DNA of 64,000 nt from Candidatus Bipolaricaulota bacterium (GTDB lineage: Bacteria; Patescibacteriota; Patescibacteriia; UBA11705; DATKZF01): assembly GCA_035528115.1 (NCBI GenBank), contig DATKZF010000003.1, positions 227,795-291,794 on the forward strand. Reading direction: 5' to 3'. Numbering within the stretch: position 1 is the stretch's first letter; every line of letters begins with the position of its first letter. The position numbers were made by a program, and so were the translations under genes. The notes under the pieces were generated by a model. It saw only the letters and a program-made list of their open reading frames with translations, did not search any database and was not told where the DNA came from. This document shows positions 2,680 to 58,995 of this stretch, in pieces.

Positions 2680-3450
2680 TTATAGTTTCGTCAAAACTTC
2701 CGGCGCTCCGTCCGTCACCAATATAGTATGTTCAAAGTGCGCCGATGGTTTCCTATCTCGGGTCACGAAAGTCCAGCCGTCGTCCAGCATTTCCACCTGA
2801 TATTTGCCCAAACAAACCATGGGTTCCAACGCCAAAGTCATGCCCGGTTTCAGTACGATATCTTTATCTCCGGAAACGTAATTGGGAATTTGGGGATCTT
2901 CATGAACCTCTTTGCCCACGCCGTGTCCGACCAGTGTTCGAACAACCGAAAAGCCTTCTCTTTCGGCCGCCTGTTGAATCGCACGCGAAACTTCTGAAAG
3001 CAGATGGCCGTTTTTGCATTGAGCGATACCGAGATCAAGCGCTTTTTTCGTGGTTTTAATCAATTTTTGGACGTCCTTGTCTATCTTGCCGACCGGTACG
3101 GTAATGGCCATATCAGTATATGTTCCGCCTTTGGCCGGATATTGCATGCCGATATCCAAACTGACGATATCTCCTTCTTTTAATATTTTTTCCGAACTCG
3201 CGATGCCGTGCACCACTTCTTCATTGACGGATACGCAAAGAGTGCAAGGAAACGGATTTCGCGACCCGCCATATCCCTTGAATGACGGGCGTCCGCCGCG
3301 AGCGAGTATTAATTTTTCTGCGACTCGATCCAATTCCAAAGAACCTACTCCCGGCTTGACCAGAGCGGCGACTTCATGCAAAATCTCAGCCAAAATTTTC
3401 CCGCCCTCTTTCATCGTTTTGACTTCAGCCGGCGTTTTGATTATTATCAT
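2680..3450 (-). CDS. map: Methionine aminopeptidase type I
   Basis: 256 aa. The metal-ligand pattern (D..D..H..E..E) and overall similarity fit MetAP. The position after adk is conserved. Confidence 0.9.
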   Translation of the reverse strand: MIIIKTPAEVKTMKEGGKILAEILHEVAALVKPGVGSLELDRVAEKLILARGGRPSFKGYGGSRNPFPCTLCVSVNEEVVHGIASSEKILKEGDIVSLDIGMQYPAKGGTYTDMAITVPVGKIDKDVQKLIKTTKKALDLGIAQCKNGHLLSEVSRAIQQAAEREGFSVVRTLVGHGVGKEVHEDPQIPNYVSGDKDIVLKPGMTLALEPMVCLGKYQVEMLDDGWTFVTRDRKPSAHFEHTILVTDGAPEVLTKL

Positions 3451-4085
3451 ACTCTTATCTTCAAAATGATTTGCTTGAATACCTTATCTATCTCCTTGCT
3501 GGCGTCTATCTCGCGCACGGCCACATTATCAAATTGTCGAAAAAAATCAAGCAACGGCGCGGTGGATCGACGATATATTCCCAACCTCTTTCGAATCGAT
3601 TCGGCATGATCATCTTTTCGCTGTATCAATTTATCGCCGCATTCATCGCACACACCCTTATTTTTGGGAGGATTATTATCGAGATGATAAATTTTACCGC
3701 ATCGCGGACATATTCGCCTCCCGCCGATTCGCTCGATCGCGGTTTTATTGTCCAATTTTAAAGCAATGACTGTCAGCGGCGACTTTCTTTCCGTTAAAAA
3801 GGTCTCCAAGGCTCTGGCTTGATTTTTATTTCTGGGAAATCCGTCGAGAATGAAATTTTTGCCTCGTTCTTTCAATTCATCCATGATAATTTCAATGATG
3901 ATTTCATCGGGCACCAACCTACCCGATTTCAAATCTATTTTTCGACCGATAGACGTTCTTTTTTTGACTTCTTCTCTTAAAATATCTCCGGAAGAAATAA
4001 CTTTCAATTTGTATTTTTGAGCTAATTTTTTGGCTTGAGTGCCTTTGCCCGAGCCCTGCGGACCCATTATTAAAATATTTTTCAT
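3447..4085 (-). CDS. adk: Adenylate kinase with a zinc-binding lid
   Basis: P-loop 'GPQGSGKGTQA'. The lid carries CPRCG...CDECG (C4 zinc knuckle). Confidence 0.9.
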   Translation of the reverse strand: MKNILIMGPQGSGKGTQAKKLAQKYKLKVISSGDILREEVKKRTSIGRKIDLKSGRLVPDEIIIEIIMDELKERGKNFILDGFPRNKNQARALETFLTERKSPLTVIALKLDNKTAIERIGGRRICPRCGKIYHLDNNPPKNKGVCDECGDKLIQRKDDHAESIRKRLGIYRRSTAPLLDFFRQFDNVAVREIDASKEIDKVFKQIILKIRV

Positions 4086-4130
4086 ATTAACGAATATATT
4101 ATAGCTTCTATAATTGATTTAGTCCATAAA

Positions 4131-4156
4131 AAAATTCGAAGATATCTTCGAATTTT
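4131..4156. promoter_or_regulatory. 26-bp perfect palindrome 'aaaattcgaagatatcttcgaatttt' in the secY-adk intergenic region (candidate operator or terminator)
   Basis: Seen directly. Centred on GAT|ATC. Confidence 0.4.
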
Positions 4157-4179
4157 CAAAAATTTTTATAAAAAAACAT

Positions 4180-5451
4180 TTAAAACCCATCGTAATCTCT
4201 CATTACCACTTGCGATTCTATCTGCTTCACCGTCTCAATAACCACGCTGACCACGATGAGCAAACTGGTGCCGCCGATCACGAGCGACGTCATGCCCGTG
4301 GCTTGCCTCATAACCAGCGGTAAAACCGCGATCACGCCCAAAAACAACGCGCCAATCAAAGTGATTCTTTTGATGGTATTGCTCAAATACATTTCAGTAT
4401 GCTGACCGGGTCTGATGCCTGGAATAAAGCCGCCCTGTTTTTGCAAATTTTCCGCAATCTGTCCGGGATGGAAAATAACGGCGGTGTAAAAATAAGTGAA
4501 GCCGAAAACCAACAAGAAATAAAGCACTCCGTAAAAAAGCTGGTTTTGAAAAACATTGATTACGAACTGCGCCAAGTGAGCGATAAACTCGGTCTTGGCG
4601 TTGACAAAAAACTGAGCGACCATGGACGGAAACAATATCAAAGAAATCGCGAAAATAATCGGTATCACGCCGGCCTGATTTACTCGCAGCGGCAGATGAG
4701 TGCTCGAGCCTCCGTACATTTTCATGCCGCGAACGCGTCTGGCGTAAGACACCGGAATATTGCGCTGTCCTTCGGTAATTACCACCACGCCGATAATCGT
4801 AATCAAAGCGATGGCTACAAACACCACCAATGTCACCAAGTTCGATCGATCGAAATTAATCAATGTCTGTTGAATGATTTGAGGGATTCTGGAAACGATG
4901 CCGGCGAAAATTATCAATGAAATGCCGTTGCCGATTTTTTTATCGGAAATCAATTCGCCGATCCAGACCAAAAACATGGTGCCCGCCGATATGGTGATGA
5001 TCATGGCGATGTATTGAAAAAGACTTTTATCCGCAATGATCTGTTGCGACGATTGTCCCAAAATTCGAATCATGGCGTACGCCTGCATTACCGCCAATGG
5101 GATGGTGGCAATCCTGGTGTACATGTTGATTTTCTGTCTGCCGACTTCTTCCTTTTGCATTTCTTCAAGCTTCGGCACGATCATGCCCAAAAGCTGAAAA
5201 ATAATGGAAGCTGTAATGTACGGCGCCACGCCCATCATCACGATGGAAAAGTTTTCCATGCCGCCGCCCGAAAAAATATTCAACAATCCCAATATCTCAT
5301 TGGAAGCGAAAAATTCTTTTAAGTTGGCGAGATTGATGCCGGGAATCGGAATATGCGCCGCGAATCTAAAAATGGCCAACATGACCAGCACGTACAAAAT
5401 GCTGTTTCGCAAATCTTTTATTTTCCAAATCTGGGTCAATTTTTCCCACAT
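4180..5451 (-). CDS. secY: Preprotein translocase subunit SecY
   Basis: 423 aa polytopic membrane protein. Its position after rplO is conserved. SecY-like TM pattern. Confidence 0.95.
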   Translation of the reverse strand: MWEKLTQIWKIKDLRNSILYVLVMLAIFRFAAHIPIPGINLANLKEFFASNEILGLLNIFSGGGMENFSIVMMGVAPYITASIIFQLLGMIVPKLEEMQKEEVGRQKINMYTRIATIPLAVMQAYAMIRILGQSSQQIIADKSLFQYIAMIITISAGTMFLVWIGELISDKKIGNGISLIIFAGIVSRIPQIIQQTLINFDRSNLVTLVVFVAIALITIIGVVVITEGQRNIPVSYARRVRGMKMYGGSSTHLPLRVNQAGVIPIIFAISLILFPSMVAQFFVNAKTEFIAHLAQFVINVFQNQLFYGVLYFLLVFGFTYFYTAVIFHPGQIAENLQKQGGFIPGIRPGQHTEMYLSNTIKRITLIGALFLGVIAVLPLVMRQATGMTSLVIGGTSLLIVVSVVIETVKQIESQVVMRDYDGF

Positions 5452-5493
5452 AAAATAAGAATTTTCCGTCTGGTTATATTATAGCAGATATAA

Positions 5494-5979
5494 TTACTTT
5501 TTTTCAGCTTTCTTGTCTGACGAAACCGGCCTGTCCTTCTTTGCGCTTTCGATGACGCCGCCGGCAGCCGCGATTTTTTCAGCCGCAGCCTTTGAAAAAT
5601 GACAATCTTTGAATTGCAATTTCTTGGCGACTTTTCCGTCGGACAATATTTTAACGCCAAAAGACGCGTCTTTTATAAGATTCTTATCCGCCAATGTTAC
5701 CGGAGTTACGAGCTCGCCTTCGTTAAATCTCTTTTCCAAATCGGTTAAATTTACATTTTGCATTTTGGGAAACTGGCTATGAAATCCTCGCAATTTCGGA
5801 ATGGTAAGCAAACTTCTCTTAAAACCTTTGAGTTTAAGACCCTTTTTGCCGCCGGAACGGGATTTCTGCCCCTTTTGACCTCTGCCGGAATATGTGCCGT
5901 GACCGGAAGAATTACCTCGTCCGATTCTTTTCCTTTTTTTCCCATCAGCGGATTTAATTGTATGCAATTGTATTGGCAT
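5494..5979 (-). CDS. rplO: 50S ribosomal protein L15
   Basis: 'GRGNSSGHGTYSGRGQKGQKSRSG' is the Gly/Arg-rich L15 N-terminus. The C-terminal extension is lysine-rich. Confidence 0.9.
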   Translation of the reverse strand: MPIQLHTIKSADGKKRKRIGRGNSSGHGTYSGRGQKGQKSRSGGKKGLKLKGFKRSLLTIPKLRGFHSQFPKMQNVNLTDLEKRFNEGELVTPVTLADKNLIKDASFGVKILSDGKVAKKLQFKDCHFSKAAAEKIAAAGGVIESAKKDRPVSSDKKAEKK

Positions 5980-5981
5980 AA

Positions 5982-6581
5982 TTATTTCTTGTTAACGTCT
6001 TTCTTCTCCTTTTTGGGCTGGTTGTCTTTGCCCTGAAATTTGGGTCTGCCGCTATTATATCTTCGATCTTCTCTCTGAGATCCGGGTTCCGTTTTTTTCT
6101 CAGCTTTTTTATCCATAGAAAGACCGGTGGTTTTAAAACTTTTCAACGCGAGCATGACCGCCTGCACATTTACCAATTTGTTTCTGGTGCCTAAAATCTT
6201 GGCCACCACGTTCGGCACTCCGGCCAATTCCAAAACCTGACGAATCACACTGCCGGCTTTAATGCCCGTGCCGGCCGGAGCCGGTTTTAACATTATTTTA
6301 GCGGCTTTGTATTTCACTCTGATTTCATGAGGGATCGTTTGATTTACAATAGGCACATCAATCAAAACTTTCTTGGCTTGCTCGACAGCCTTGTTAATAG
6401 CCACGGTAACATCAGCTCCCTTGGCGACTCCGGCTCCCACTTTGCCCCTGCCGTCGCCAATGGCAACCACGGCGCGAAATCTCATTCTCTTTCCGCCGGC
6501 CATGACGCGTGTAACCCTAGCCAAGTGTATCAACTGCTGGTTATACTCGCGATCTTCCCTTTTTTTTCTACTTTTCATCAT
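5982..6581 (-). CDS. rpsE: 30S ribosomal protein S5 with a ~45-aa lysine-rich C-terminal extension
   Basis: 'VTRVMAGGKRMRFRAVVAIGDGRGKVGAGVAKG...KAGSVIRQVLELAGV' matches S5. Its stop abuts the rplO start, with no L30 gene between them. Confidence 0.9.
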   Translation of the reverse strand: MMKSRKKREDREYNQQLIHLARVTRVMAGGKRMRFRAVVAIGDGRGKVGAGVAKGADVTVAINKAVEQAKKVLIDVPIVNQTIPHEIRVKYKAAKIMLKPAPAGTGIKAGSVIRQVLELAGVPNVVAKILGTRNKLVNVQAVMLALKSFKTTGLSMDKKAEKKTEPGSQREDRRYNSGRPKFQGKDNQPKKEKKDVNKK

Positions 6582-6604
6582 AATGCTATGTAACTAATAA
6601 CTTC

Positions 6605-6952
6605 TTAAAATTTCAAACCCGCGGCTCTCGCGCTTTCCGCCACAGCCTTAACTCTTCCATGATATTTGAATCCGCCGCGATCAAAAACAACTTGTTCTAT
6701 TTTTTTCTTCAATGCCTCGGCCCCGACCTGCTCTCCCAATTTGGCCGCGCGTTCCGTTTTATTGCCTTTGATTTTTCGATCATCCAAGGCTAACAAAGTT
6801 TTTCCCGCCGTATCATCGATCAATTGAACATAACAATTCAACAGACTTTTATAAACCGCCAATCTCGGACATTTTGCCGTACCAAAAATCTTGGCGCGAA
6901 CACGCCTTTGTCTGAAATATTTTCGTTGATTTTTTTTCTGTTCTTTGTTCAT
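6605..6952 (-). CDS. rplR: 50S ribosomal protein L18
   Basis: 115 aa. 'RLAVYKSLLNCYVQLIDD...DRGGFKYHGRVKAVAESARAAGLKF' matches L18. Confidence 0.9.
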   Translation of the reverse strand: MNKEQKKNQRKYFRQRRVRAKIFGTAKCPRLAVYKSLLNCYVQLIDDTAGKTLLALDDRKIKGNKTERAAKLGEQVGAEALKKKIEQVVFDRGGFKYHGRVKAVAESARAAGLKF

Positions 6953-21090: not shown

Positions 21091-21110
21091 CCTGCCTGCC
21101 GGCAGGCAGG
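21091..21110. repeat. 20-bp perfect palindrome 'cctgcctgccggcaggcagg' (family member)
   Basis: Seen directly. It is embedded in a longer imperfect inverted repeat. Confidence 0.7.
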
Positions 21111-21308
21111 CGGTCGAGATGACAACAGCGTCGGCCTTGTTTCTCTATTTTTCTGTCTCATGTTCTTTTGTTTCATGCTTAATGATCCATGATACGTGTT
21201 ATGTGATACGTGCTATGTGTTCCGTGTTTCATGATCAAGACTTGATTTATTTTAACATACATGTTAAACTATTTCCATAATTCAGTAATTAACTAACGTC
21301 ACTATAAT

Positions 21309-52030: not shown

Positions 52031-52070
52031 ATTCCCGCGAAAGCCTGCCTGCCGGCAGGCAGGCGGGAAT
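52031..52070. repeat. Extended palindrome 'attcccgcgaaagcctgcctgccggcaggcaggcgggaat' (family member)
   Basis: Seen directly. Intergenic, upstream of femAB. Confidence 0.7.
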
Positions 52071-52221: not shown

Positions 52222-53310
52222 CTATCTCGCACGCAAAATCTTGTACATCTTGTACCCCAAATCCCACACCTTCAAAACAACCGGCCTGAAAATAAGCTGA
52301 TAGCACCCCAAATACTCAAAAATCGGCCGGCTCGGGTCAAAACCTTGTTTGAATCTGGTAATACCCTGCCAGGACTTTTCCTTTTTCACTTTGGAATCAG
52401 CGGGCGCGGCTCCCCAAAAATCATAAATTTCAAAGCCTTCTTTTTTCGCGTCGCAAATAGCGCGCCACTGTAAAAGGTGCGGGGCCATGACATTGCGATA
52501 TTTATCCGAAGAGGCGCCGAAAAGGTAGGTGGCCACGTTTTTATAATAAACGCACAAAATCCCGGCCACAACTTTGTTTTCAAATTTCGCCAAATACAAT
52601 TTCGAAAAATCGAATTTTAAAATATCCTCGAAATATTTCAGCGGGTACGCGCCGAATTTTTGCCGAGCCGTTGTTTGTTTCAATAATTCAAAGAACGTGG
52701 CCGCGTCTTTTGACTCCTCGACCTTCACTCCCTTTTTCTCAGCCAGCCTGATATTATATCTGGTTTTCTGGCTCATTTTCGCCAGCAATTCGTCTTCAGA
52801 CTGTGAAATATCGAGCATGATGGTGTGGGCCGGCTGGACTTCGTCATTTGATTTTTTCAAACCCAGATTCTCAAAAGCTTTTTTCCAAACATTTTTTTCA
52901 TCAATGGCCAAGCTCGACCACTTTTCTTTTTCCGGCAAATTTCCGGCGTCAATTATCACATTGGGATCGATTCGAAAAAGCAATGATTTGTTTTCTTTGG
53001 CAATCGCACGGACTTTTTCAAATAATAATTTCAAAACCTGCTCGAGCTTTTGCTCGTCATTTAAAATTTCATCGCAAACGACCGGGCCTCTGGGGCAATA
53101 CAAGCCGTTTTGTCCGATCAAAAACCGATGTTTCCAAAAAAACATTTGCGCCAAGATTTTCTCGCCGTCTTTTACCTCCAATCGCCAGATTTTTTGCTGG
53201 CGGCCGGACTGAAATTCGCCCCATTCAAAAGATTGTAAAAGAGAGCCGGTTTTTTGGGCGGCGTTGAAGGAAGAATAGGGGGTTTGAATTTGAGATTGTT
53301 CGACAATCAT
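52222..53310 (-). CDS. FemAB-family peptidoglycan interpeptide-bridge aminoacyltransferase
   Basis: 362 aa. Family-typical motifs ('YNIRLAEKKG', 'GAYPLKYF', 'APHLLQWRAI'). Confidence 0.75.
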   Translation of the reverse strand: MIVEQSQIQTPYSSFNAAQKTGSLLQSFEWGEFQSGRQQKIWRLEVKDGEKILAQMFFWKHRFLIGQNGLYCPRGPVVCDEILNDEQKLEQVLKLLFEKVRAIAKENKSLLFRIDPNVIIDAGNLPEKEKWSSLAIDEKNVWKKAFENLGLKKSNDEVQPAHTIMLDISQSEDELLAKMSQKTRYNIRLAEKKGVKVEESKDAATFFELLKQTTARQKFGAYPLKYFEDILKFDFSKLYLAKFENKVVAGILCVYYKNVATYLFGASSDKYRNVMAPHLLQWRAICDAKKEGFEIYDFWGAAPADSKVKKEKSWQGITRFKQGFDPSRPIFEYLGCYQLIFRPVVLKVWDLGYKMYKILRAR

Positions 53311-53346
53311 AATGCAAAGGTGTAAGCCTAATAAAATTATTCAATT

Positions 53347-54192
53347 TCAATGACGAGGATTTTTGTTTTTCAATTGCCGCTCATTACTGCCATTAATGAC
53401 GCTCTTTCCGGTTTTGCTTTCAATGTCCTTTCTGGCATTACCGGCCACGCTTCCGCCATCTCTTGCCACGATTTTATTTTCATCCATATTTTTCGGCTGA
53501 CGTTTTTGGGAAATTTCGGTCGTGGCGGTTTCGGCAAGCATATTCAAAACCAGCTCAAGATTCGTCATATTATCGCGTAAATTTTCCTTTTTCAAATTTT
53601 TCAACCGCTTGTATTCTTTGGTGGTCAATCCTGCCCAAGCCTTGATTATCTCATCGGTGAGAATGGCAAATTCCAATCCATCTTTCACGCCGCGCTTTTC
53701 CCATTCATCGGTCAACGCTTTTCTTATTTCAATACTTTTTAAGCGTTGATTGATCCATTCCTGACTGTACCCCTTTTGCCAATAAGTCTTTAGCGCGCGG
53801 TCTATCGCCAATTCCGGATCAGCGGTCTCCTCCAGCCGTTCATATCCCACGCGCGCCAGCCAAAGTTTAAATGGTTCGGCATTGGGAGAAGGGATGGACT
53901 GGATAAGACGAAGCATGGTTTCGGTATCAGCCGCGTCAGTAAGACGCATTTTGCCGTCCGGGGCAATCATTTTCAAAGCGTTACATTTTGTAACGGTTTC
54001 ATTTGAACCTTCATCAATCAATCGTTTTTTCAGCACGCGCCAATAAACCTGCGGATTATCACTCTTTGTAAGAACCGCTATTACATCAGCTACCGAGAAA
54101 TACCAGATTTCCTTTTCTCCGTCCCAATGACGGCGAATTTGATTTCCTTCAAAAATCGCTATTGTTTTGTTTTTTGATTCCTTTTTTGCCAT
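53347..54192 (-). CDS. DinD-like DNA-damage-inducible protein with a Bro-N/KilAC-like N-terminal domain
   Basis: 281 aa. 'IAIFEGNQIRRHWDGEKEIWYFSVADVIAVLT' is Bro-N-like. The overall layout resembles E. coli DinD. Confidence 0.6.
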   Translation of the reverse strand: MAKKESKNKTIAIFEGNQIRRHWDGEKEIWYFSVADVIAVLTKSDNPQVYWRVLKKRLIDEGSNETVTKCNALKMIAPDGKMRLTDAADTETMLRLIQSIPSPNAEPFKLWLARVGYERLEETADPELAIDRALKTYWQKGYSQEWINQRLKSIEIRKALTDEWEKRGVKDGLEFAILTDEIIKAWAGLTTKEYKRLKNLKKENLRDNMTNLELVLNMLAETATTEISQKRQPKNMDENKIVARDGGSVAGNARKDIESKTGKSVINGSNERQLKNKNPRH

Positions 54193-54218
54193 GATATTTA
54201 CAAATTTATTTCAAAAAC

Positions 54219-54395
54219 TTATTTTTCTTTCCGGCTAAAAATTTTCTCTCCGTCTTTTACCTCCAACCGCCGGATTTTTTGCTGGCGGGTTTTTTGGAAT
54301 TCGGACCAATTCAAGGATTGCAAAAGAGAGGAGGTTTTTGGGGAAAGGGCAAAATTTTGCCAGGAGGTTTGATCAGAAAATTCTTCGATTCTCAT
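54219..54395 (-). pseudogene. Diverged duplicate of the femAB 5' end (N-terminal 55 codons), a remnant
   Basis: Nucleotides 54225-54400 are about 80% identical to 53160-53310. It translates to 'MRIEEFSDQTSWQNFALSPKTSSLLQSLNWSEFQKTRQQKIRRLEVKDGEKIF', against femAB 'MIVEQSQIQTPYSSFNAAQKTGSLLQSFEWGEFQSGRQQKIWRLEVKDGEKIL'. It then terminates. Confidence 0.55.
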
Positions 54396-54407
54396 TATAT
54401 TAAAAAA

Positions 54408-54920
54408 TTATTCTTTAAATATTAAATATTTTTTAAAAAGTTCTCTTGATTCGTCAAATTGTTTTTGAAACCAAGTCAACAAATCATAACTTTCTTGAGC
54501 CAACCCTGTTCTTTTATCTCCAATAGGTAACCTTGCATCATTCAATAATCTGCTCACCATTGCTAAACGTATCGCCTTTCCTCTTAGAGTGTCAATATAA
54601 TTGGGAATCTCTTTATCAAATAGAAATTCTCTTTCATTTGTATCTGCGATAAATTGATTTAGGACTTTAGGGTTAACTGTCGCATTAATCATGGCATCAC
54701 GCAATAAAGCAGTGATTGCCTTATATATCGTGTATCTTCTGTCATATAGATTTAATTTAAATTGATCAGATCTTGTTCTGTGTTCTTGATATGCGATATA
54801 CGCTACAAAAATAGCAATCATGGGGGTCAATAGGCCTGATAGTATTACTATCAATCTAACATATTCGATCATCTCCGTTATTTTATGAATTATTGACACG
54901 GTAAACATAACGACAAACAT
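54408..54920 (-). CDS. Hypothetical single-pass membrane protein, downstream partner of the Rx4HG (HEPN-like) gene
   Basis: 170 aa with an N-terminal TM 'VRLIVILSGLLTPMIAIFVAYIAY' and a cytoplasmic helical domain. A 2-nt gap to the upstream gene suggests an operon. Confidence 0.45.
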   Translation of the reverse strand: MFVVMFTVSIIHKITEMIEYVRLIVILSGLLTPMIAIFVAYIAYQEHRTRSDQFKLNLYDRRYTIYKAITALLRDAMINATVNPKVLNQFIADTNEREFLFDKEIPNYIDTLRGKAIRLAMVSRLLNDARLPIGDKRTGLAQESYDLLTWFQKQFDESRELFKKYLIFKE

Positions 54921-54922
54921 AC

Positions 54923-56065
54923 TTAACTGTAAAAAAATAATTGATCAAGAATCAAAATCAACTGTAAAGCACGTTGCTTTGTATATTGTTGTGGTTCCGC
55001 AACTCCGTGGCCCGCTGAATTGCGCGACATACCAATATTTCCAGCCTCGACATTAAAGGTTGCAAAGACAACATCCTTTAAGTATGTTAAAAATGGCAGA
55101 GGAAATAACAATGAATGATCTGAACCAGTTTTATTTTTCGCCTTTTCGACAATGTGTTTGGATAACTCGTATGATTTTATTCCAACGCCTTTCCCCGTAT
55201 CTACAAAATAAAGTATTCTCAATACTCCTTCAATCTCAGACCACAATGTTTTTATGCAAGTCACAAATCCATCCGGATTATTTTGCATATAAGCATTAAC
55301 ACCAGCCCCAATCAAAGCCTTTTTTTCTGAAAAAATTTTGTTTTGCCACCACTTTTCTGTTATTTTCTTTATGCGACTTGAATCAAAACTATCTACAATA
55401 ATTTTAATTCTGTTTTCAAAATCAAATCTGTTTTGATAGACTTCAGTCAATTGCTTGTAAGCAATGGCAATAATCTCTATAAAAGGGAACCAACCATCTT
55501 TCCTCATATCAGCGAACTGAGCCCCCGCCTCCAGGGTTTTATAAACATGATAAAAAGAAAGATATCTATACAATCCGCCTATAGATAATTCCATTTTCTC
55601 CATATCTAATTGTTGGTGATCTCCCGTGTGGAAATCAACCGCAGTAAAATCAAAAAATAATCCAAATCGCCATCCAACTTTAAAACAATAAATTACACTG
55701 TCATTTGAAACAATACTTATATCACCAAACTTTATTTTTCTGATGTCTGCGACGTCGGCATCGGTTATGGCCTCTCCAACCTTTACATCTCTCTTTGCCT
55801 TAATTTCAACTAATACTTTAAAATCATTCACATATAGATCCGCGCTCAAATCATCATGTATAACAATGAGGAACTGGCATACTGAATCTTCCAGAACACC
55901 TGCTCGGGATAGAAACAAGTTTGATATTTGATCCATGTATTTGTAAAAAACCGGCTCGTCTGACGTTAACTTAGCGCGTATTAAAATTTCTGCCACCTCG
56001 CCGTCTTTTACATTCTTGGTAGAAAAGCCAGCAAGATTATCGACTTTATCAAAGTAAAATTTCAT
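54923..56065 (-). CDS. Hypothetical protein with a C-terminal Rx4HG (HEPN-like) motif. Candidate RNase toxin / abortive-infection effector.
   Basis: 380 aa. 'NIGMSRNSAGHGVAEP' carries R-x4-H-G near the C-terminus (compare 'RNxxAHG' of many HEPN nucleases). No other family recognised. GC is lower than the background. Confidence 0.4.
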   Translation of the reverse strand: MKFYFDKVDNLAGFSTKNVKDGEVAEILIRAKLTSDEPVFYKYMDQISNLFLSRAGVLEDSVCQFLIVIHDDLSADLYVNDFKVLVEIKAKRDVKVGEAITDADVADIRKIKFGDISIVSNDSVIYCFKVGWRFGLFFDFTAVDFHTGDHQQLDMEKMELSIGGLYRYLSFYHVYKTLEAGAQFADMRKDGWFPFIEIIAIAYKQLTEVYQNRFDFENRIKIIVDSFDSSRIKKITEKWWQNKIFSEKKALIGAGVNAYMQNNPDGFVTCIKTLWSEIEGVLRILYFVDTGKGVGIKSYELSKHIVEKAKNKTGSDHSLLFPLPFLTYLKDVVFATFNVEAGNIGMSRNSAGHGVAEPQQYTKQRALQLILILDQLFFYS

Positions 56066-56141
56066 ATTAATTTAATGTCTCAAAAATCTTCTTTACTAAT
56101 TTCGTCCTCGCGTAAAAAGCGCGCGTTATCGGTCGCCTTTA

Positions 56142-56333
56142 CTAAACCCACCACGCCTGAAACTCCGGATACGTCAGGGAATCGTAAAAATCCAAATATT
56201 TATCATCCTCCCAAACCAGCTCCGTGAAATTCTTCAGATCTTCATTATATCCGCGGCACATGACTTTCAAGCGCGCCAGCGGATTGAATCTTAACATGAT
56301 TTTAGCGGAAGTGGGAGAGATATTGATTTCCAT
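56142..56333 (-). CDS. Hypothetical small protein (63 aa)
   Basis: ORF between the DpnI-like gene and the Rx4HG gene. No recognisable motif. Confidence 0.3.
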   Translation of the reverse strand: MEINISPTSAKIMLRFNPLARLKVMCRGYNEDLKNFTELVWEDDKYLDFYDSLTYPEFQAWWV

Positions 56334-56338
56334 ATTTT

Positions 56339-57109
56339 TTAATTGAGTTTGTATTTCCCTCTGCCCAAAAACTTCAAATACCCGCCATCGCGCAAAAACT
56401 GCAACTGCTGGCGGATTTTGTCTTTGATATGCTTATTTTCTGGATGCAAAAGGCTTAATTCTTTTTCAAAAGCATACATTTCATCGAGCGAAAATTCTTT
56501 TTTCCCGACTTGATCAACGCAGCACATGACGTCAAGCGTCCAGCCTTTGGCTGATATTTCTTTTTCTTCTCGCAAAAACAAAGTTTTCTTCCAGTCGTCC
56601 AGCACCTTTTTCTTCGGCGCAATTCGCTTATCTCGGACGAAAAATATTTTGCCGGTTTGAGGAATGCTTTTTAGAATGATATTGCAGCCCACCCAGCCGG
56701 CGCGGCGAGCGGATGGAGGAAGCGGCTTTCGTTTCTCGATCATTTCAGGCACGAAAAAATGTTTGGGGATCACGATAAAATTTATTACCTGCAAGCTCTT
56801 CAAATTATAATTTAGAAAAAAGAAATTGGGATTGGCGCTGCTTTTCAGACGATCCAACATGGTCTTATACGCTCCGTCGACTATTTTCAAACCCATGGAA
56901 TCTCTTTTACTTTTCAATTCATAATCTTCCAGGCAATTGGCGCAATAAAAATCGGCTGCCGGCCGATTATTCGGATATTTATCGATTTCAACGCGGCCGC
57001 AATTCGGACAAAAGATGGAATGATCAACCCAATTTTCCGTCAAAACGCGCGCTTTTTGCGAAGCGCTTTTATAATTTGTAGCTAACTTTTTATCAAAAAA
57101 TAATTTCAT
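56339..57109 (-). CDS. DpnI-like methyl-directed restriction endonuclease (Dam-replacing protein family)
   Basis: 256 aa. 'YKSASQKARVLTENWV...FCPNCG...NRPAADFYCANC...YELKSKRD' matches the DpnI/DRP catalytic domain pattern. A C-terminal winged-helix-like region ends 'FLGRGKYKLN'. Confidence 0.6.
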   Translation of the reverse strand: MKLFFDKKLATNYKSASQKARVLTENWVDHSIFCPNCGRVEIDKYPNNRPAADFYCANCLEDYELKSKRDSMGLKIVDGAYKTMLDRLKSSANPNFFFLNYNLKSLQVINFIVIPKHFFVPEMIEKRKPLPPSARRAGWVGCNIILKSIPQTGKIFFVRDKRIAPKKKVLDDWKKTLFLREEKEISAKGWTLDVMCCVDQVGKKEFSLDEMYAFEKELSLLHPENKHIKDKIRQQLQFLRDGGYLKFLGRGKYKLN

Positions 57110-57128
57110 GTTTATTAGACTTTAAAAT

Positions 57129-57758
57129 TTATTTACAAGCCCGCGCGACCCATCTGCCATGGCTATCCAAATCCAATTGCAGATCTCTAAATTTTGAAAA
57201 CAATTTTTGAACTTCCTCCCTTGTATAAAAACTGTGAGGCAATCCTTTTTCCGGACCCGATAATGGGGCGAAAGTCCCTTCGGATATTTCCTGATGATTT
57301 TTAAAAGTATTCCATTTCTTACTGCTTTCAAGATCAGGCAACGTAATGAAGGTTCTTCCATTGGTAACAATTGACTCAAAAATTCTATTTATCAAAGATT
57401 GAACCTGCGCCTTTGTTCCATGGTGGATCGTGGCGATGGACAGTATCAAATCGTATTTATCCTTAGGAATTTCAAATTCAAACATATTCGAGCAAAGAAT
57501 GACGGAATCATCGCCCAGCTCTTTTTTTGTCATTTCCACCGCTGTTTCACTCGAATCAATGCCATCTGTTTTAAATCCGCCTGCTTCCAAAAATTGCAAA
57601 TATTTTCCCGTACCGCACCCGATATCCAAAACATATTTAATTTCAAAATCAGATTGATTTAAAAATTCTTTAAATAAAGGATGGATTTCTTCCGAAAGAG
57701 TCGCCCAAGCTTGGCCGCCTTGCTGATAATTCTTATAAATTTTATCCCAAATAGTCAT
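57129..57758 (-). CDS. Class I SAM-dependent methyltransferase (TehB-like small-molecule MTase)
   Basis: 209 aa. 'VLDIGCGTGKYLQFL' is motif I. It lacks DNA-MTase target-recognition features. Confidence 0.75.
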   Translation of the reverse strand: MTIWDKIYKNYQQGGQAWATLSEEIHPLFKEFLNQSDFEIKYVLDIGCGTGKYLQFLEAGGFKTDGIDSSETAVEMTKKELGDDSVILCSNMFEFEIPKDKYDLILSIATIHHGTKAQVQSLINRIFESIVTNGRTFITLPDLESSKKWNTFKNHQEISEGTFAPLSGPEKGLPHSFYTREEVQKLFSKFRDLQLDLDSHGRWVARACK

Positions 57759-57760
57759 AT

Positions 57761-58363
57761 TTATTTTATTGATCCAACCAATTCCACTTCATCCCCCTCG
57801 ACCAAAACAGCTTGATTATCCGTTATTTCCTTAATTTCATAAGAGACCTTTTTCTTCCATTCATCAATAACATCCTTGTCGCTTTCTTCATAGTGCGGCG
57901 CCACGGCGAAATCGACAAACCCCAATCCTTTTGTATTCCGCAAATCAACATCGTTTTCATCCCAAGGAGCGGCGGTTTCAATGTCAGGCCCGGCCACAAT
58001 GCTGCCGGCGCTGACGCCGACGTAAACGCCATCAAAACCGTTTAATATCCGGTCAAATTCCGATTCGCGGATCTTATTCAATAAATAAAAACTATTGCCT
58101 CCGCAGACGTAAATGACATCATAGCCGGCAACTTCATCGGTTTTTATTGTATGATCCAATTCCAGCGTTTTTATGTCTTTAATCCCCAAATCCAGTAATT
58201 CTTTATATGATTCCTTTACGTATTTTAATTCTTCATCGCTTCGCGAGGCTGTCGGCACGAAAATCACTCGTATTTCGCGTGACGGTTTGCCGCACAATTC
58301 AATAAATTTTTCAGCGACCTTTTTATTCAAAAACCCCGCCGATGTAAGTAAAATTTTTTCCAT
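57761..58363 (-). CDS. pepE: Peptidase E (S51, type-1 glutamine amidotransferase-like fold). Start at the internal Met 'MEKILLTSAGF'.
   Basis: 'ILLTSAG...VIFVPTAS...YVGVSAGS' matches peptidase S51 motifs. The track ORF start (58417) adds 18 non-conserved residues. Confidence 0.65.
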   Translation of the reverse strand: MEKILLTSAGFLNKKVAEKFIELCGKPSREIRVIFVPTASRSDEELKYVKESYKELLDLGIKDIKTLELDHTIKTDEVAGYDVIYVCGGNSFYLLNKIRESEFDRILNGFDGVYVGVSAGSIVAGPDIETAAPWDENDVDLRNTKGLGFVDFAVAPHYEESDKDVIDEWKKKVSYEIKEITDNQAVLVEGDEVELVGSIK

Positions 58364-58419
58364 ATTAATTACAAATTCCAGCTTCCATGCCCTCGTCCCT
58401 AACCTCCAGCCTCCCAAAA

Positions 58420-58995
58420 TTACCGTCCTCCTAAAAACTTTAACGCCTCTTTCAATTGCTCCCCCGAATCCACGATTTCCTTTGAAACTTTGCTCAAAGC
58501 GTCTCTGGCCTGCTGTTTGCTGTAGCCGAGAGTCATCAAGGCTTCTACGGTATCATTATTAATTGACACCGCTTCAAACGAATCAGCGCCTTCCAAATAC
58601 TCGACTTTATTTTTTAATTCCAAAACGATTCGCTCGGCCGTTTTTTTGCCCAAGCCCGACACTTCATCGAAAACTTCGGCTTGCCCATTGGCAATGGCTG
58701 ACAATATCTGATTGACCGAATACGCGGCAAAGACATTGAGCGCGGTTTTCGGGCCCACGCCATTAACCGAGATCAATTTTTCAAAAAGCCCCAGCTCTTC
58801 AAAGCTCGAAAACCCGAAAAGGTCATCAGCGTCTTCCCTGATATTTTCATAAAGATAAAATTCTGCCGCGTCGCCGATACTCAACTCGGCCAACAGTTTT
58901 TTATTGGTGAATATTTTATAACCCAGGTCATTTCTTGCCAAAATTACGAAATTTTCGCCTTTGTTTTTGATTGTTCCCTTGATGAATGAAAGCAT
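58420..58995 (-). CDS. ruvA: Holliday junction DNA helicase RuvA
   Basis: 191 aa. 'LISVNGVGPKTALNVF...GLGKKTAERIVLEL' are tandem HhH motifs. Confidence 0.9.
   Translation of the reverse strand: MLSFIKGTIKNKGENFVILARNDLGYKIFTNKKLLAELSIGDAAEFYLYENIREDADDLFGFSSFEELGLFEKLISVNGVGPKTALNVFAAYSVNQILSAIANGQAEVFDEVSGLGKKTAERIVLELKNKVEYLEGADSFEAVSINNDTVEALMTLGYSKQQARDALSKVSKEIVDSGEQLKEALKFLGGR

Follow-up and report, generated by a model that had tools for sequence, protein, structure and literature searches.

A truncated femAB copy beside a Bro-N gene as the probable relic of a single-gene insertion with target duplication

Within a 64,000-nucleotide (nt) stretch of an assembly deposited as Candidatus Bipolaricaulota bacterium (GCA_035528115.1, contig DATKZF010000003.1, forward-strand positions 227,795 to 291,794; hereafter, the window), the gene for a FemAB-family peptidoglycan bridge aminoacyltransferase is accompanied upstream by a truncated copy of its own 5′ end, and a single gene encoding a Bro-N-domain protein lies between the two. 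The copies form a direct repeat, related lineages carry femAB once, and comparable brackets recur around Bro-N genes at unrelated loci, in one case with an unoccupied counterpart of the filled site. From this we infer that the fragment is probably the relic of an insertion of the Bro-N gene alone into the 5′ part of femAB, accompanied by duplication of the target.

Intact femAB (52222..53310; 362 aa) matches the Pfam FemAB model (PF02388) over its full length (164.9 bits vs. a cut-off of 24), and its full-length orthologues, 59–76% identical, come from Patescibacteria contigs. Its codons 1–55 (53146..53310) constitute the downstream copy of the repeat, while the upstream copy is a pseudo-femAB 5′ fragment (54231..54395) homologous to the same codons and contained in a 58-codon open reading frame (ORF; 54219–54395). 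The fragment and all genes around it are on the minus strand; the fragment matches femAB in frame and collinearly from the start codon onwards, and the start-to-start distance of the two copies is 1085 nt. At the protein level, 31 of 55 residues are identical (BLASTP, E = 2e-17), and a tblastn search with FemAB across the whole window recovered the fragment (54395–54231, E = 1.6e-12) and no further femAB-like piece. At the DNA level, blastn aligned 54238–54343 with 53153–53258 over 106 ungapped nt at 80% identity (E = 3e-21), vs. 68% over the full 165 nt, with mismatches spread evenly over the codon positions (17/16/20). A first-pass annotation of the window had proposed a 57-residue duplicate of the femAB 5′ end with about 80% identity. 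The duplicate is real, its size being corrected here to a 58-codon ORF and its extent to 54231–54395 vs. 53146–53310, and the identity value applies to the 106-nt core. The same annotation suggested a self-comparison of the region, which returns this pair and no other significant DNA repeat within 52–59 kb; the second boundary repeat that it proposed to look for was not found, either near 57.1 kb or elsewhere.

As had also been proposed, exactly one gene, encoding the Bro-N protein (53347..54192, minus strand; 281 aa), is located between the fragment and intact femAB. Clear fragment homology ends 38 nt before the Bro-N start codon (junction or leader, 54193..54230), and 36 nt separate the Bro-N stop codon from the femAB ATG (53311..53346). 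Part of the leader may itself be decayed femAB, since approximately 54211–54227 matches femAB nt 177–193 collinearly at 14 of 17 positions, a score reached in 74 of 2000 shuffles. Tentatively, decayed femAB would then continue ~30 nt past the stop codon of the fragment, to ~18 nt from the Bro-N ATG, with an 8-nt deletion accounting for the frameshift and the early stop. The 58-codon ORF is not predicted to serve as a functional FemAB gene, as it covers residues 1–55 only, leaving out the catalytic domains, and alters residues that are invariant in ten close orthologues (G22 to S, W42 to R); on its own, it has no Pfam match. A scan of the minus strand in 53311–53346 found no terminator-like site, and because Bro-N and femAB are also co-oriented, the two are probably co-transcribed, with promoter-like sites at 54407–54457 as a possible origin of the transcript. 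No tRNA or Rfam feature was found at the site, the three tRNAs of the window all being distant.

Comparison with relatives argues that a single femAB was the starting state. Downstream of ruvA, femAB follows directly in L003 (76% FemAB identity), L011–L013 (66%) and L014 (59%), or after one small gene: a 134-aa member of the 23S_rRNA_IVP family in L005–L008 (63%; 9530–9934 in L005) and a 127-aa ORF in L009–L010 (66%; 9664–10047 in L009). In none of these five related lineages, which span 59–76% FemAB identity and differ in upstream context, did the ruvA–femAB site contain Bro-N or any additional femAB, whole or fragmentary, and no flanking repeats surround the small genes of L005 and L009. The ancestral order was thus U32 peptidase, ruvA, femAB. 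Within this clade, the ruvA–femAB junction is a hotspot for insertions: of six lineages, three carry cargo there, different in each, and three carry none. In the window, the junction holds Bro-N, the fragment, a low-GC block (54408..56333) directly upstream of the fragment, and genes for a DpnI-type restriction enzyme, a methyltransferase and an S51 peptidase (together 56339..58417), the last three of which are absent between ruvA and femAB in all five lineages.

These comparisons bear out the first-pass view of the site as an insertion or rearrangement scar, and tandem femAB paralogues enclosing the same gene, which would have spoken for decay of a paralogue instead, occur in none of the five lineages. 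The annotation had further taken the fragment as one boundary of an accessory segment running to ~57.1 kb, and had asked whether femAB is directly followed by the methyltransferase, pepE and ruvA genes in related genomes. Relatives do have a single femAB, yet it lies directly beside ruvA or is separated from it by one small gene, so that the entire stretch between the two genes, 53311–58419 (5.1 kb) and including pepE and the methyltransferase gene, is variable in the source genome. The fragment lies inside this stretch, between the low-GC block and Bro-N, and not at its edge; the island boundary accordingly moves to the ruvA–femAB junction. Because the repeats enclose Bro-N alone and the same bracket recurs at unrelated sites elsewhere, the scar most likely reflects an insertion of this gene only, an event of its own within the island.

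To what extent other Bro-N genes are bracketed was assessed by comparing the 500 nt upstream with the 500 nt downstream of each gene on the same strand, in a sample of 160 of more than 1000 available loci. Flanking repeats were detected at 19 of 150 Bro-N loci at E < 1e-3 and at 13 at E < 1e-10, thresholds at which BLAST misses old repeats. Around size-matched control ORFs from the same loci, the corresponding numbers were three and two of 130 (Fisher p = 0.0013 and 0.008, respectively). Under earlier flank criteria, 18 of 145 Bro-N loci had repeats at E < 1e-3, vs. 13 of 420 shifted control windows (Fisher p = 8e-5). Brackets are hence about five-fold enriched around Bro-N compared to control genes; as the control ORFs were mostly core genes, this enrichment is relative to average genes and not to other accessory genes.

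The repeats consist of local host sequence, different at every site and ranging from 27 to 123 nt or more, and those at the loci listed below differ in length and sequence and have no common core. Five loci resemble the window in that Bro-N is preceded by a duplicate of the 5′ end of the gene following it, sometimes together with the promoter region of that gene: L025 (58 nt, 88%), L055 (105 nt, 84%; ArsC family), L075 (at least 123 nt, 97%; beta-lactamase family), L109 (53 nt, 85%) and L128 (32 nt, 91%; GFO/IDH/MocA). At three others, Bro-N is followed by a duplicate of the 3′ end of the preceding gene, namely L044 (68 nt, 97%), L072 (36 nt, 94%; serS) and L149 (50 nt, 84%). In L044, the duplicated stretch is made up of the final 60 nt of hsdM and of ATGAAAAA, a sequence that provides the start of Bro-N as well as that of the gene after it. 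At L041, L169 and L061, a terminator or promoter region is copied; the L041 repeats, in the isolate F. tiangeerense CGMCC 1.6847, are 97% identical and mark a young bracket. One of these brackets can be compared with an unoccupied site: in L180, whose SerS is 95% identical to that of L072 and which has no Bro-N there, serS is directly followed by a tetratricopeptide repeat (TPR) gene and the repeat is present in a single copy, whereas in L072 the Bro-N insert is preceded as well as followed by the last 36–38 nt of serS, the copy after it retaining the TAA stop codon of L180. L072 and L180 thus form a filled/unoccupied pair with a clearly single-copy target.

Two of the surveyed Bro-N loci showed further peculiarities. 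In L061 (Peptostreptococcaceae), the 38-nt repeat flanking Bro-N (333–370 and 1296–1333) holds GAACAAATGTTC beside a TATAAT, which we take to resemble a Gram-positive LexA box over a –10 element and which presumably hints at a damage-inducible Bro-N copy at this locus. L083 carries two different Bro-N-domain genes in tandem (172–1023 and 1193–2029, within 79–2220), and an intergenic sequence of ~100 nt occurs there three times, before each of the two genes and after the second.

The window repeat itself is not uniform. Identity is ~45–65% over the initial 100 nt and climbs to 90% over the last 51 nt (codons 37–53). Over codons 1–36, fragment and intact femAB are 60% identical, with mismatches equally distributed over codon positions, and share 22 of 36 third positions, no better than fragment and orthologue L003 (21 of 36). 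Over codons 37–53, 13 of 17 third positions are shared, vs. 6–10 of 17 with orthologues. A single duplication of uniform age cannot yield both values, because a drift of ~10% in the fragment, as in the patch, would require ~35% change in codons 1–36 of the working gene over the same period.

It is codons 1–36 of the intact gene that stand out in other comparisons as well. Compared with its sister P0002, itself somewhat divergent in this region, intact femAB is 47% identical there (normalised ratio 0.63), vs. ratios of at least 0.95 in every other 36-codon window, making the first 36 codons the only part of the gene not close to P0002. With L003, the fragment shares 62% of nucleotides and the intact gene 56% over these codons (21 vs. 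15 of 36 third positions), a difference that is not statistically significant. Shared derived residues, counted in our own reading of the alignment, split about 2:1:2 and are ambiguous as to the ancestral copy, and base composition was uninformative as a test for a foreign origin of the intact 5′ end.

According to the explanation we favour, ORF-sized DNA carrying only Bro-N would have entered the first ~165–190 nt of femAB and duplicated the target. The downstream copy would have stayed joined to the femAB body and remained a working gene, whereas the upstream copy, severed from it, would be decaying as a 58-codon pseudogene. This event would be separate from the arrival of the rest of the ruvA–femAB island. 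Since the repeat is of uneven age, the insertion would have followed one of two histories. In the first, which we put forward tentatively, Bro-N was imported with a foreign femAB 5′ end attached to it beforehand, perhaps on a circle excised via flanking repeats in a related donor, or on a linear fragment. Recombination would then have taken place within the conserved patch of codons 37–55, and heteroduplex repair would have rendered this patch nearly identical. The second, about which we are slightly more doubtful, posits an old in situ insertion with long target duplication and a later gene-conversion tract nearest the junction. In either case, direct repeats would permit loss of Bro-N by repeat-to-repeat recombination, leaving femAB undamaged.

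Several observations weigh against this explanation. Flanking repeats were found at only 9–13% of Bro-N loci, and none exist at the second Bro-N copy of the same genome (L175) or at the closest homologues (L181, L184). Two control ORFs (L166, L158) and some shifted windows have equally strong brackets, and because these two loci show the bracket around other accessory genes, the structure is not unique to Bro-N; they hint that small inserts in general may use this route. In L158 (942–2305), a gene pair with helix-turn-helix (HTH) and Spo0A_C-like products lies between 270-nt repeats (81%) reaching into the start of a DUF1016-family gene, and in L166 (~4720–6075) a gene with a Fib_succ_major domain lies between repeats of ~110–205 nt (91–94%). 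Furthermore, the nearest relative has only 76% FemAB identity and a close strain lacking the insert at this locus was not found, so that the target duplication in the window is deduced from distant comparisons. Among the loci inspected, none has a Bro-N homologue immediately beside femAB, which weakens the version with an imported 5′ end. Neither an insertion-driving enzymatic activity nor a nuclease fold is evident in the Bro-N protein, and the uneven identity does not fit a single simple event.

Among the alternatives, the best placed, which we nevertheless regard as unlikely, holds that the fragment does mark an island edge. It would have arrived with a left-hand island, consisting of the u380–u170 block and a donor femAB 5′ end, by one-sided homologous recombination, the other end having been joined illegitimately just before a Bro-N gene that was by then in place ahead of femAB (by homology-facilitated illegitimate recombination or allele displacement), and the bracket would be coincidental. 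The fragment indeed begins 12 nt after the u170 stop codon, a junction resembling that of a native operon, its codons 1–36 differ from the resident gene as much as from that of another genus, as would fit a foreign origin, and the junction is the hotspot described above. That one-sided recombination can leave remnants of gene ends behind is reported from other systems, for instance for effector displacement in type VI secretion systems (PMC5361080). However, the about five-fold excess of flanking repeats around Bro-N makes a coincidence less likely, and the 90%-identical patch at the junction, synonymous sites included, is left unexplained. Contrary to what this scenario predicts, the fragment is slightly closer to L003 than the intact 5′ end is, albeit not significantly.

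FemAB-family genes are often present in multiple copies in Gram-positive bacteria, such as femA and femB in staphylococci, and the fragment could in principle be what remains of a second, tandem femAB paralogue whose remainder was deleted or overwritten, with Bro-N sitting between the former paralogues. The strong divergence of codons 1–36 would fit an old paralogue, but sharing 13 of 17 synonymous sites with the neighbouring gene in codons 37–53 would not. As neither a second femAB nor a remnant exists in the five related lineages (L003, L005–L008, L009–L010, L011–L013, L014), the window has no other femAB-like piece, and the same bracket geometry is seen with unrelated genes at other Bro-N loci, we consider this very unlikely. 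Still less probable is a site-specific integrative element that recombined in femAB and brought a replacement 5′ end in its attachment (att) site. The 51-nt, 90%-identical patch would then be the att core, and its position on the inner side of the upstream copy is that expected of such a core; the odd first 36 codons of intact femAB would likewise be accounted for by replacement of the 5′ end. Yet the 920 nt between the repeats encode only Bro-N, neither they nor the island encode an integrase or recombinase domain, and the Bro-N loci share no core and no conserved terminal motifs outside the ORF.

Finally, although short two-copy repeats are common in the region, chance similarity in AT-rich DNA is refuted by the alignment statistics given above for an in-frame match collinear from the start codon, and an assembly artefact can be dismissed because identical FemAB and Bro-N proteins occur together on eight contigs, seven of them longer than 200 kb, and the copies are too different for a graph artefact (one of the eight places was inspected, and the other seven were grouped with it, most neighbouring genes being the same).

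The gene inside the bracket encodes an N-terminal Bro-N domain (Pfam PF02498; residues 20–113, 36.1 bits vs. a cut-off of 25.6) followed by a C-terminal half that is predicted with low confidence to be all-helical, the AlphaFold model being poor there (mean pLDDT, the predicted local distance difference test, of 57.6). Residues 7–278 of the 281 match PADLOC model PDLC04920 (PDC-S13) with E = 6.3e-131, by which the protein belongs to the PDC-S13 family and is a candidate single-gene defence protein. It likewise matches phrog_15286 (E = 6.5e-123), a PHROG of unknown function. The first-pass annotation had called the gene DinD-like; with 29.4 bits vs. the cut-off of 242 for the NCBIfam DinD equivalog (NF008573), over residues 143–258 only, it is not a DinD orthologue, and the name reflects a loose resemblance. 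By sequence, no relative was found in the PDB. The literature search on Bro-N, DinD and defence was uninformative, and no mention of the name PDC-S13 was found in it.

Bro-N proteins of this kind are widespread, with more than 8000 matching database proteins. The best 120 matches, 79–87% identical, come from many Patescibacteria lineages whose FemAB is only ~40% identical to that of the window, and genome and metagenome scans each yielded more than 590 loci, with 61–85% identity in Bacteroidota, Clostridia, Gammaproteobacteria, Cloacimonadota and others. Loci L015–L174 illustrate this spread, at 79–87% identity among Patescibacteria lineages and 61–70% in Bacteroidota, Clostridia, Gammaproteobacteria and others. 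Among 44 sequences, 136 of the 281 positions are invariant, an unusual degree of conservation for an accessory gene of unknown function. The nearest relatives have ~78% DNA identity where the protein has 85%, which indicates strong purifying selection rather than very recent transfer. The source genome contains a second copy (P0178, at L175; 82% identical) between cysS and a peptidase/dus pair. In the phage collection, Bro-N is rare (four short metagenomic contigs only), it is uncommon on plasmids (23 records), and no DNA match was found in E. coli genomes. Two Haliscomenobacter copies share a plasmid backbone and show no independent movement.

No donor lineage with Bro-N directly beside femAB was identified, the closest homologues (84–87%) residing in unrelated contexts. 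In L022 (Andersenbacteria, 2958–6831) and L098, ruvA–femAB is found ~1.4 kb upstream of a Bro-N homologue, not adjacent to it and with no fragment. DNA homology between the window cassette and 80 loci is confined to the ORF (region positions 503–1341; ORF 509–1354), the sole exception being L085, where a short, weak match begins 6 nt upstream of the ORF. Conserved cassette termini were not found, no inverted-repeat pair brackets the gene, and Pfam and NCBIfam searches revealed no integrase, transposase or recombinase domain between the repeats or in the island.

Insertion with long target duplication was reportedly described for restriction-modification genes by Nobusato et al. in 2000, and it is the closest described phenomenon. 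As characterised by Furuta, Abe and Kobayashi (2010, Nucleic Acids Research, PMC2853133), it concerns units without a transposase, flanked by variable repeats of >30 bp to >400 bp that are single-copy in genomes without the insert and commoner than around average genes. The class was defined operationally by inserts with both restriction (R) and modification (M) genes; its mechanism is unknown, DNA breakage by restriction enzymes was suggested as a common cause, and a virus-like cycle of excision and re-invasion through the repeats was proposed (PMC2853133). The Bro-N inserts resemble these in being small, defence-type units without transposase or integrase that are flanked by direct repeats of the local target, 27 to 165 nt or more in length as compared to 46 to >400 bp in PMC2853133. 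The window repeat, a 165-nt pair with a 106-nt, 80%-identical core, is on the same strand and longer than 30 bp, and no other mobile element lies within the insert. By contrast, the insert consists of a single gene, Bro-N, and lacks both R and M genes as well as any recognisable nuclease, the DpnI-type enzyme lying outside the repeats; the window repeat is old and mosaic (68% overall) instead of 90–100% identical, and the host belongs to the Patescibacteria.

Other known processes fit less closely. Homology-facilitated illegitimate recombination, which combines a homologous anchor with an illegitimate joint, is reported from bacteria with natural competence and from conjugation in E. coli (PMC3240628). 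It can insert foreign DNA beside a conserved gene without an element-encoded enzyme, leaving a gene piece of arbitrary length, and it would explain differences between donor-type and recipient-type copies. It needs, however, a donor with Bro-N beside the same gene, and none was found; it would therefore explain spread among relatives and not first insertions at many unrelated sites. In E. coli, e14 and phage 21 integrate at the 3′ end of icd with the help of an integrase and a fixed att core and replace the 3′ end. They share with the window a partial, diverged duplicate of a gene end beside the insert and a gene that stays functional, whereas the Bro-N insert has no integrase or shared core and involves the 5′ end. 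Transposons and insertion sequences, which carry a transposase and terminal inverted repeats, generate target-site duplications of ~2–14 bp. Direct target repeats flank their inserts as well; those around Bro-N measure 27–165 nt or more and come with no inverted repeats, conserved ends or transposase.

The scar alone would be ordinary and matters as one instance of a repeated pattern, in which a very conserved, single candidate defence gene is bracketed by long local duplications from Patescibacteria to Bacteroidota and Clostridia. Such recurrence around a conserved non-restriction gene across phyla extends a known, unexplained class, and brackets around a gene with no recognisable nuclease weaken restriction cleavage as the cause. 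One might go further and regard Bro-N/PDC-S13 as a single-gene mobile unit without a transposase that spreads across phyla by long, variable target duplications and leaves and re-enters via the repeats. We consider this rather improbable, as no nuclease fold is evident, near-identical intragenomic copies were seen only within a shared plasmid backbone and most loci have no repeats. DinD has been reported to inhibit RecA. If Bro-N were such a unit, its product might aid the process, given its DNA-binding Bro-N domain and weak resemblance to DinD, or a general host pathway might favour it. Long-target-duplication insertion would then be independent of cleavage by restriction enzymes, contrary to the proposal for restriction-modification genes. 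The bracketed Bro-N genes also provide a one-gene system of ~0.9 kb in cultivable hosts such as Flavobacterium. For genome annotation, the present case illustrates that a short ORF similar to the beginning or end of the gene beside it can be the footprint of an insertion.

The remainder of the island lies, like Bro-N, on the minus strand. The low-GC block contains three unannotatable ORFs (170, 380 and 63 aa) with a GC content of 0.32–0.35 and a GC content at third codon positions (GC3) of 0.27–0.32, vs. 0.44 for the window; none matches Pfam, NCBIfam, PADLOC or PHROGs, and the block is older island cargo. Beyond it are the genes for a DpnI-type methyl-directed restriction enzyme (56339–57109; Pfam, and PADLOC mREase_II with E = 2e-116), a class I S-adenosylmethionine (SAM) methyltransferase (57129–57758; Pfam, and a partial PADLOC mad2 match with E = 3.9e-17) and an S51 peptidase (pepE, 57761–58417; Pfam), followed by the conserved flank ruvA (58420..58995), whose Pfam domains RuvA_N, HHH_5 and RuvA_C were identified on the contig of the same genome (L001). 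The methyltransferase is of the small-molecule type, mad2 is a component of a methylation-associated defence system, and a methyl-directed restriction enzyme together with a methyltransferase makes an odd pairing.

A 28-nt direct repeat (57089–57116 vs. 56045–56072; 82%) covers the beginnings of the DpnI gene and the 380-aa ORF, in each case with the start codon and the first seven codons (MKLFFDK and MKFYFDK, respectively). It brackets the DpnI gene and the 63-aa ORF at a spacing of 1044 nt, and could be a second small insertion footprint or due to chance in AT-rich DNA. With regard to the source organism, the label 'Candidatus Bipolaricaulota bacterium' is carried by one NCBI record, whereas the closest organism-labelled FemAB relative is from Patescibacteria, so the label may be wrong. 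A perfect palindrome of 22 nt, GCCTGCCTGCCGGCAGGCAGGC, is located at 52043–52064, in the long gap that follows femAB, and an identical 23-nt copy at 21091–21113; it may represent a dispersed hairpin repeat.

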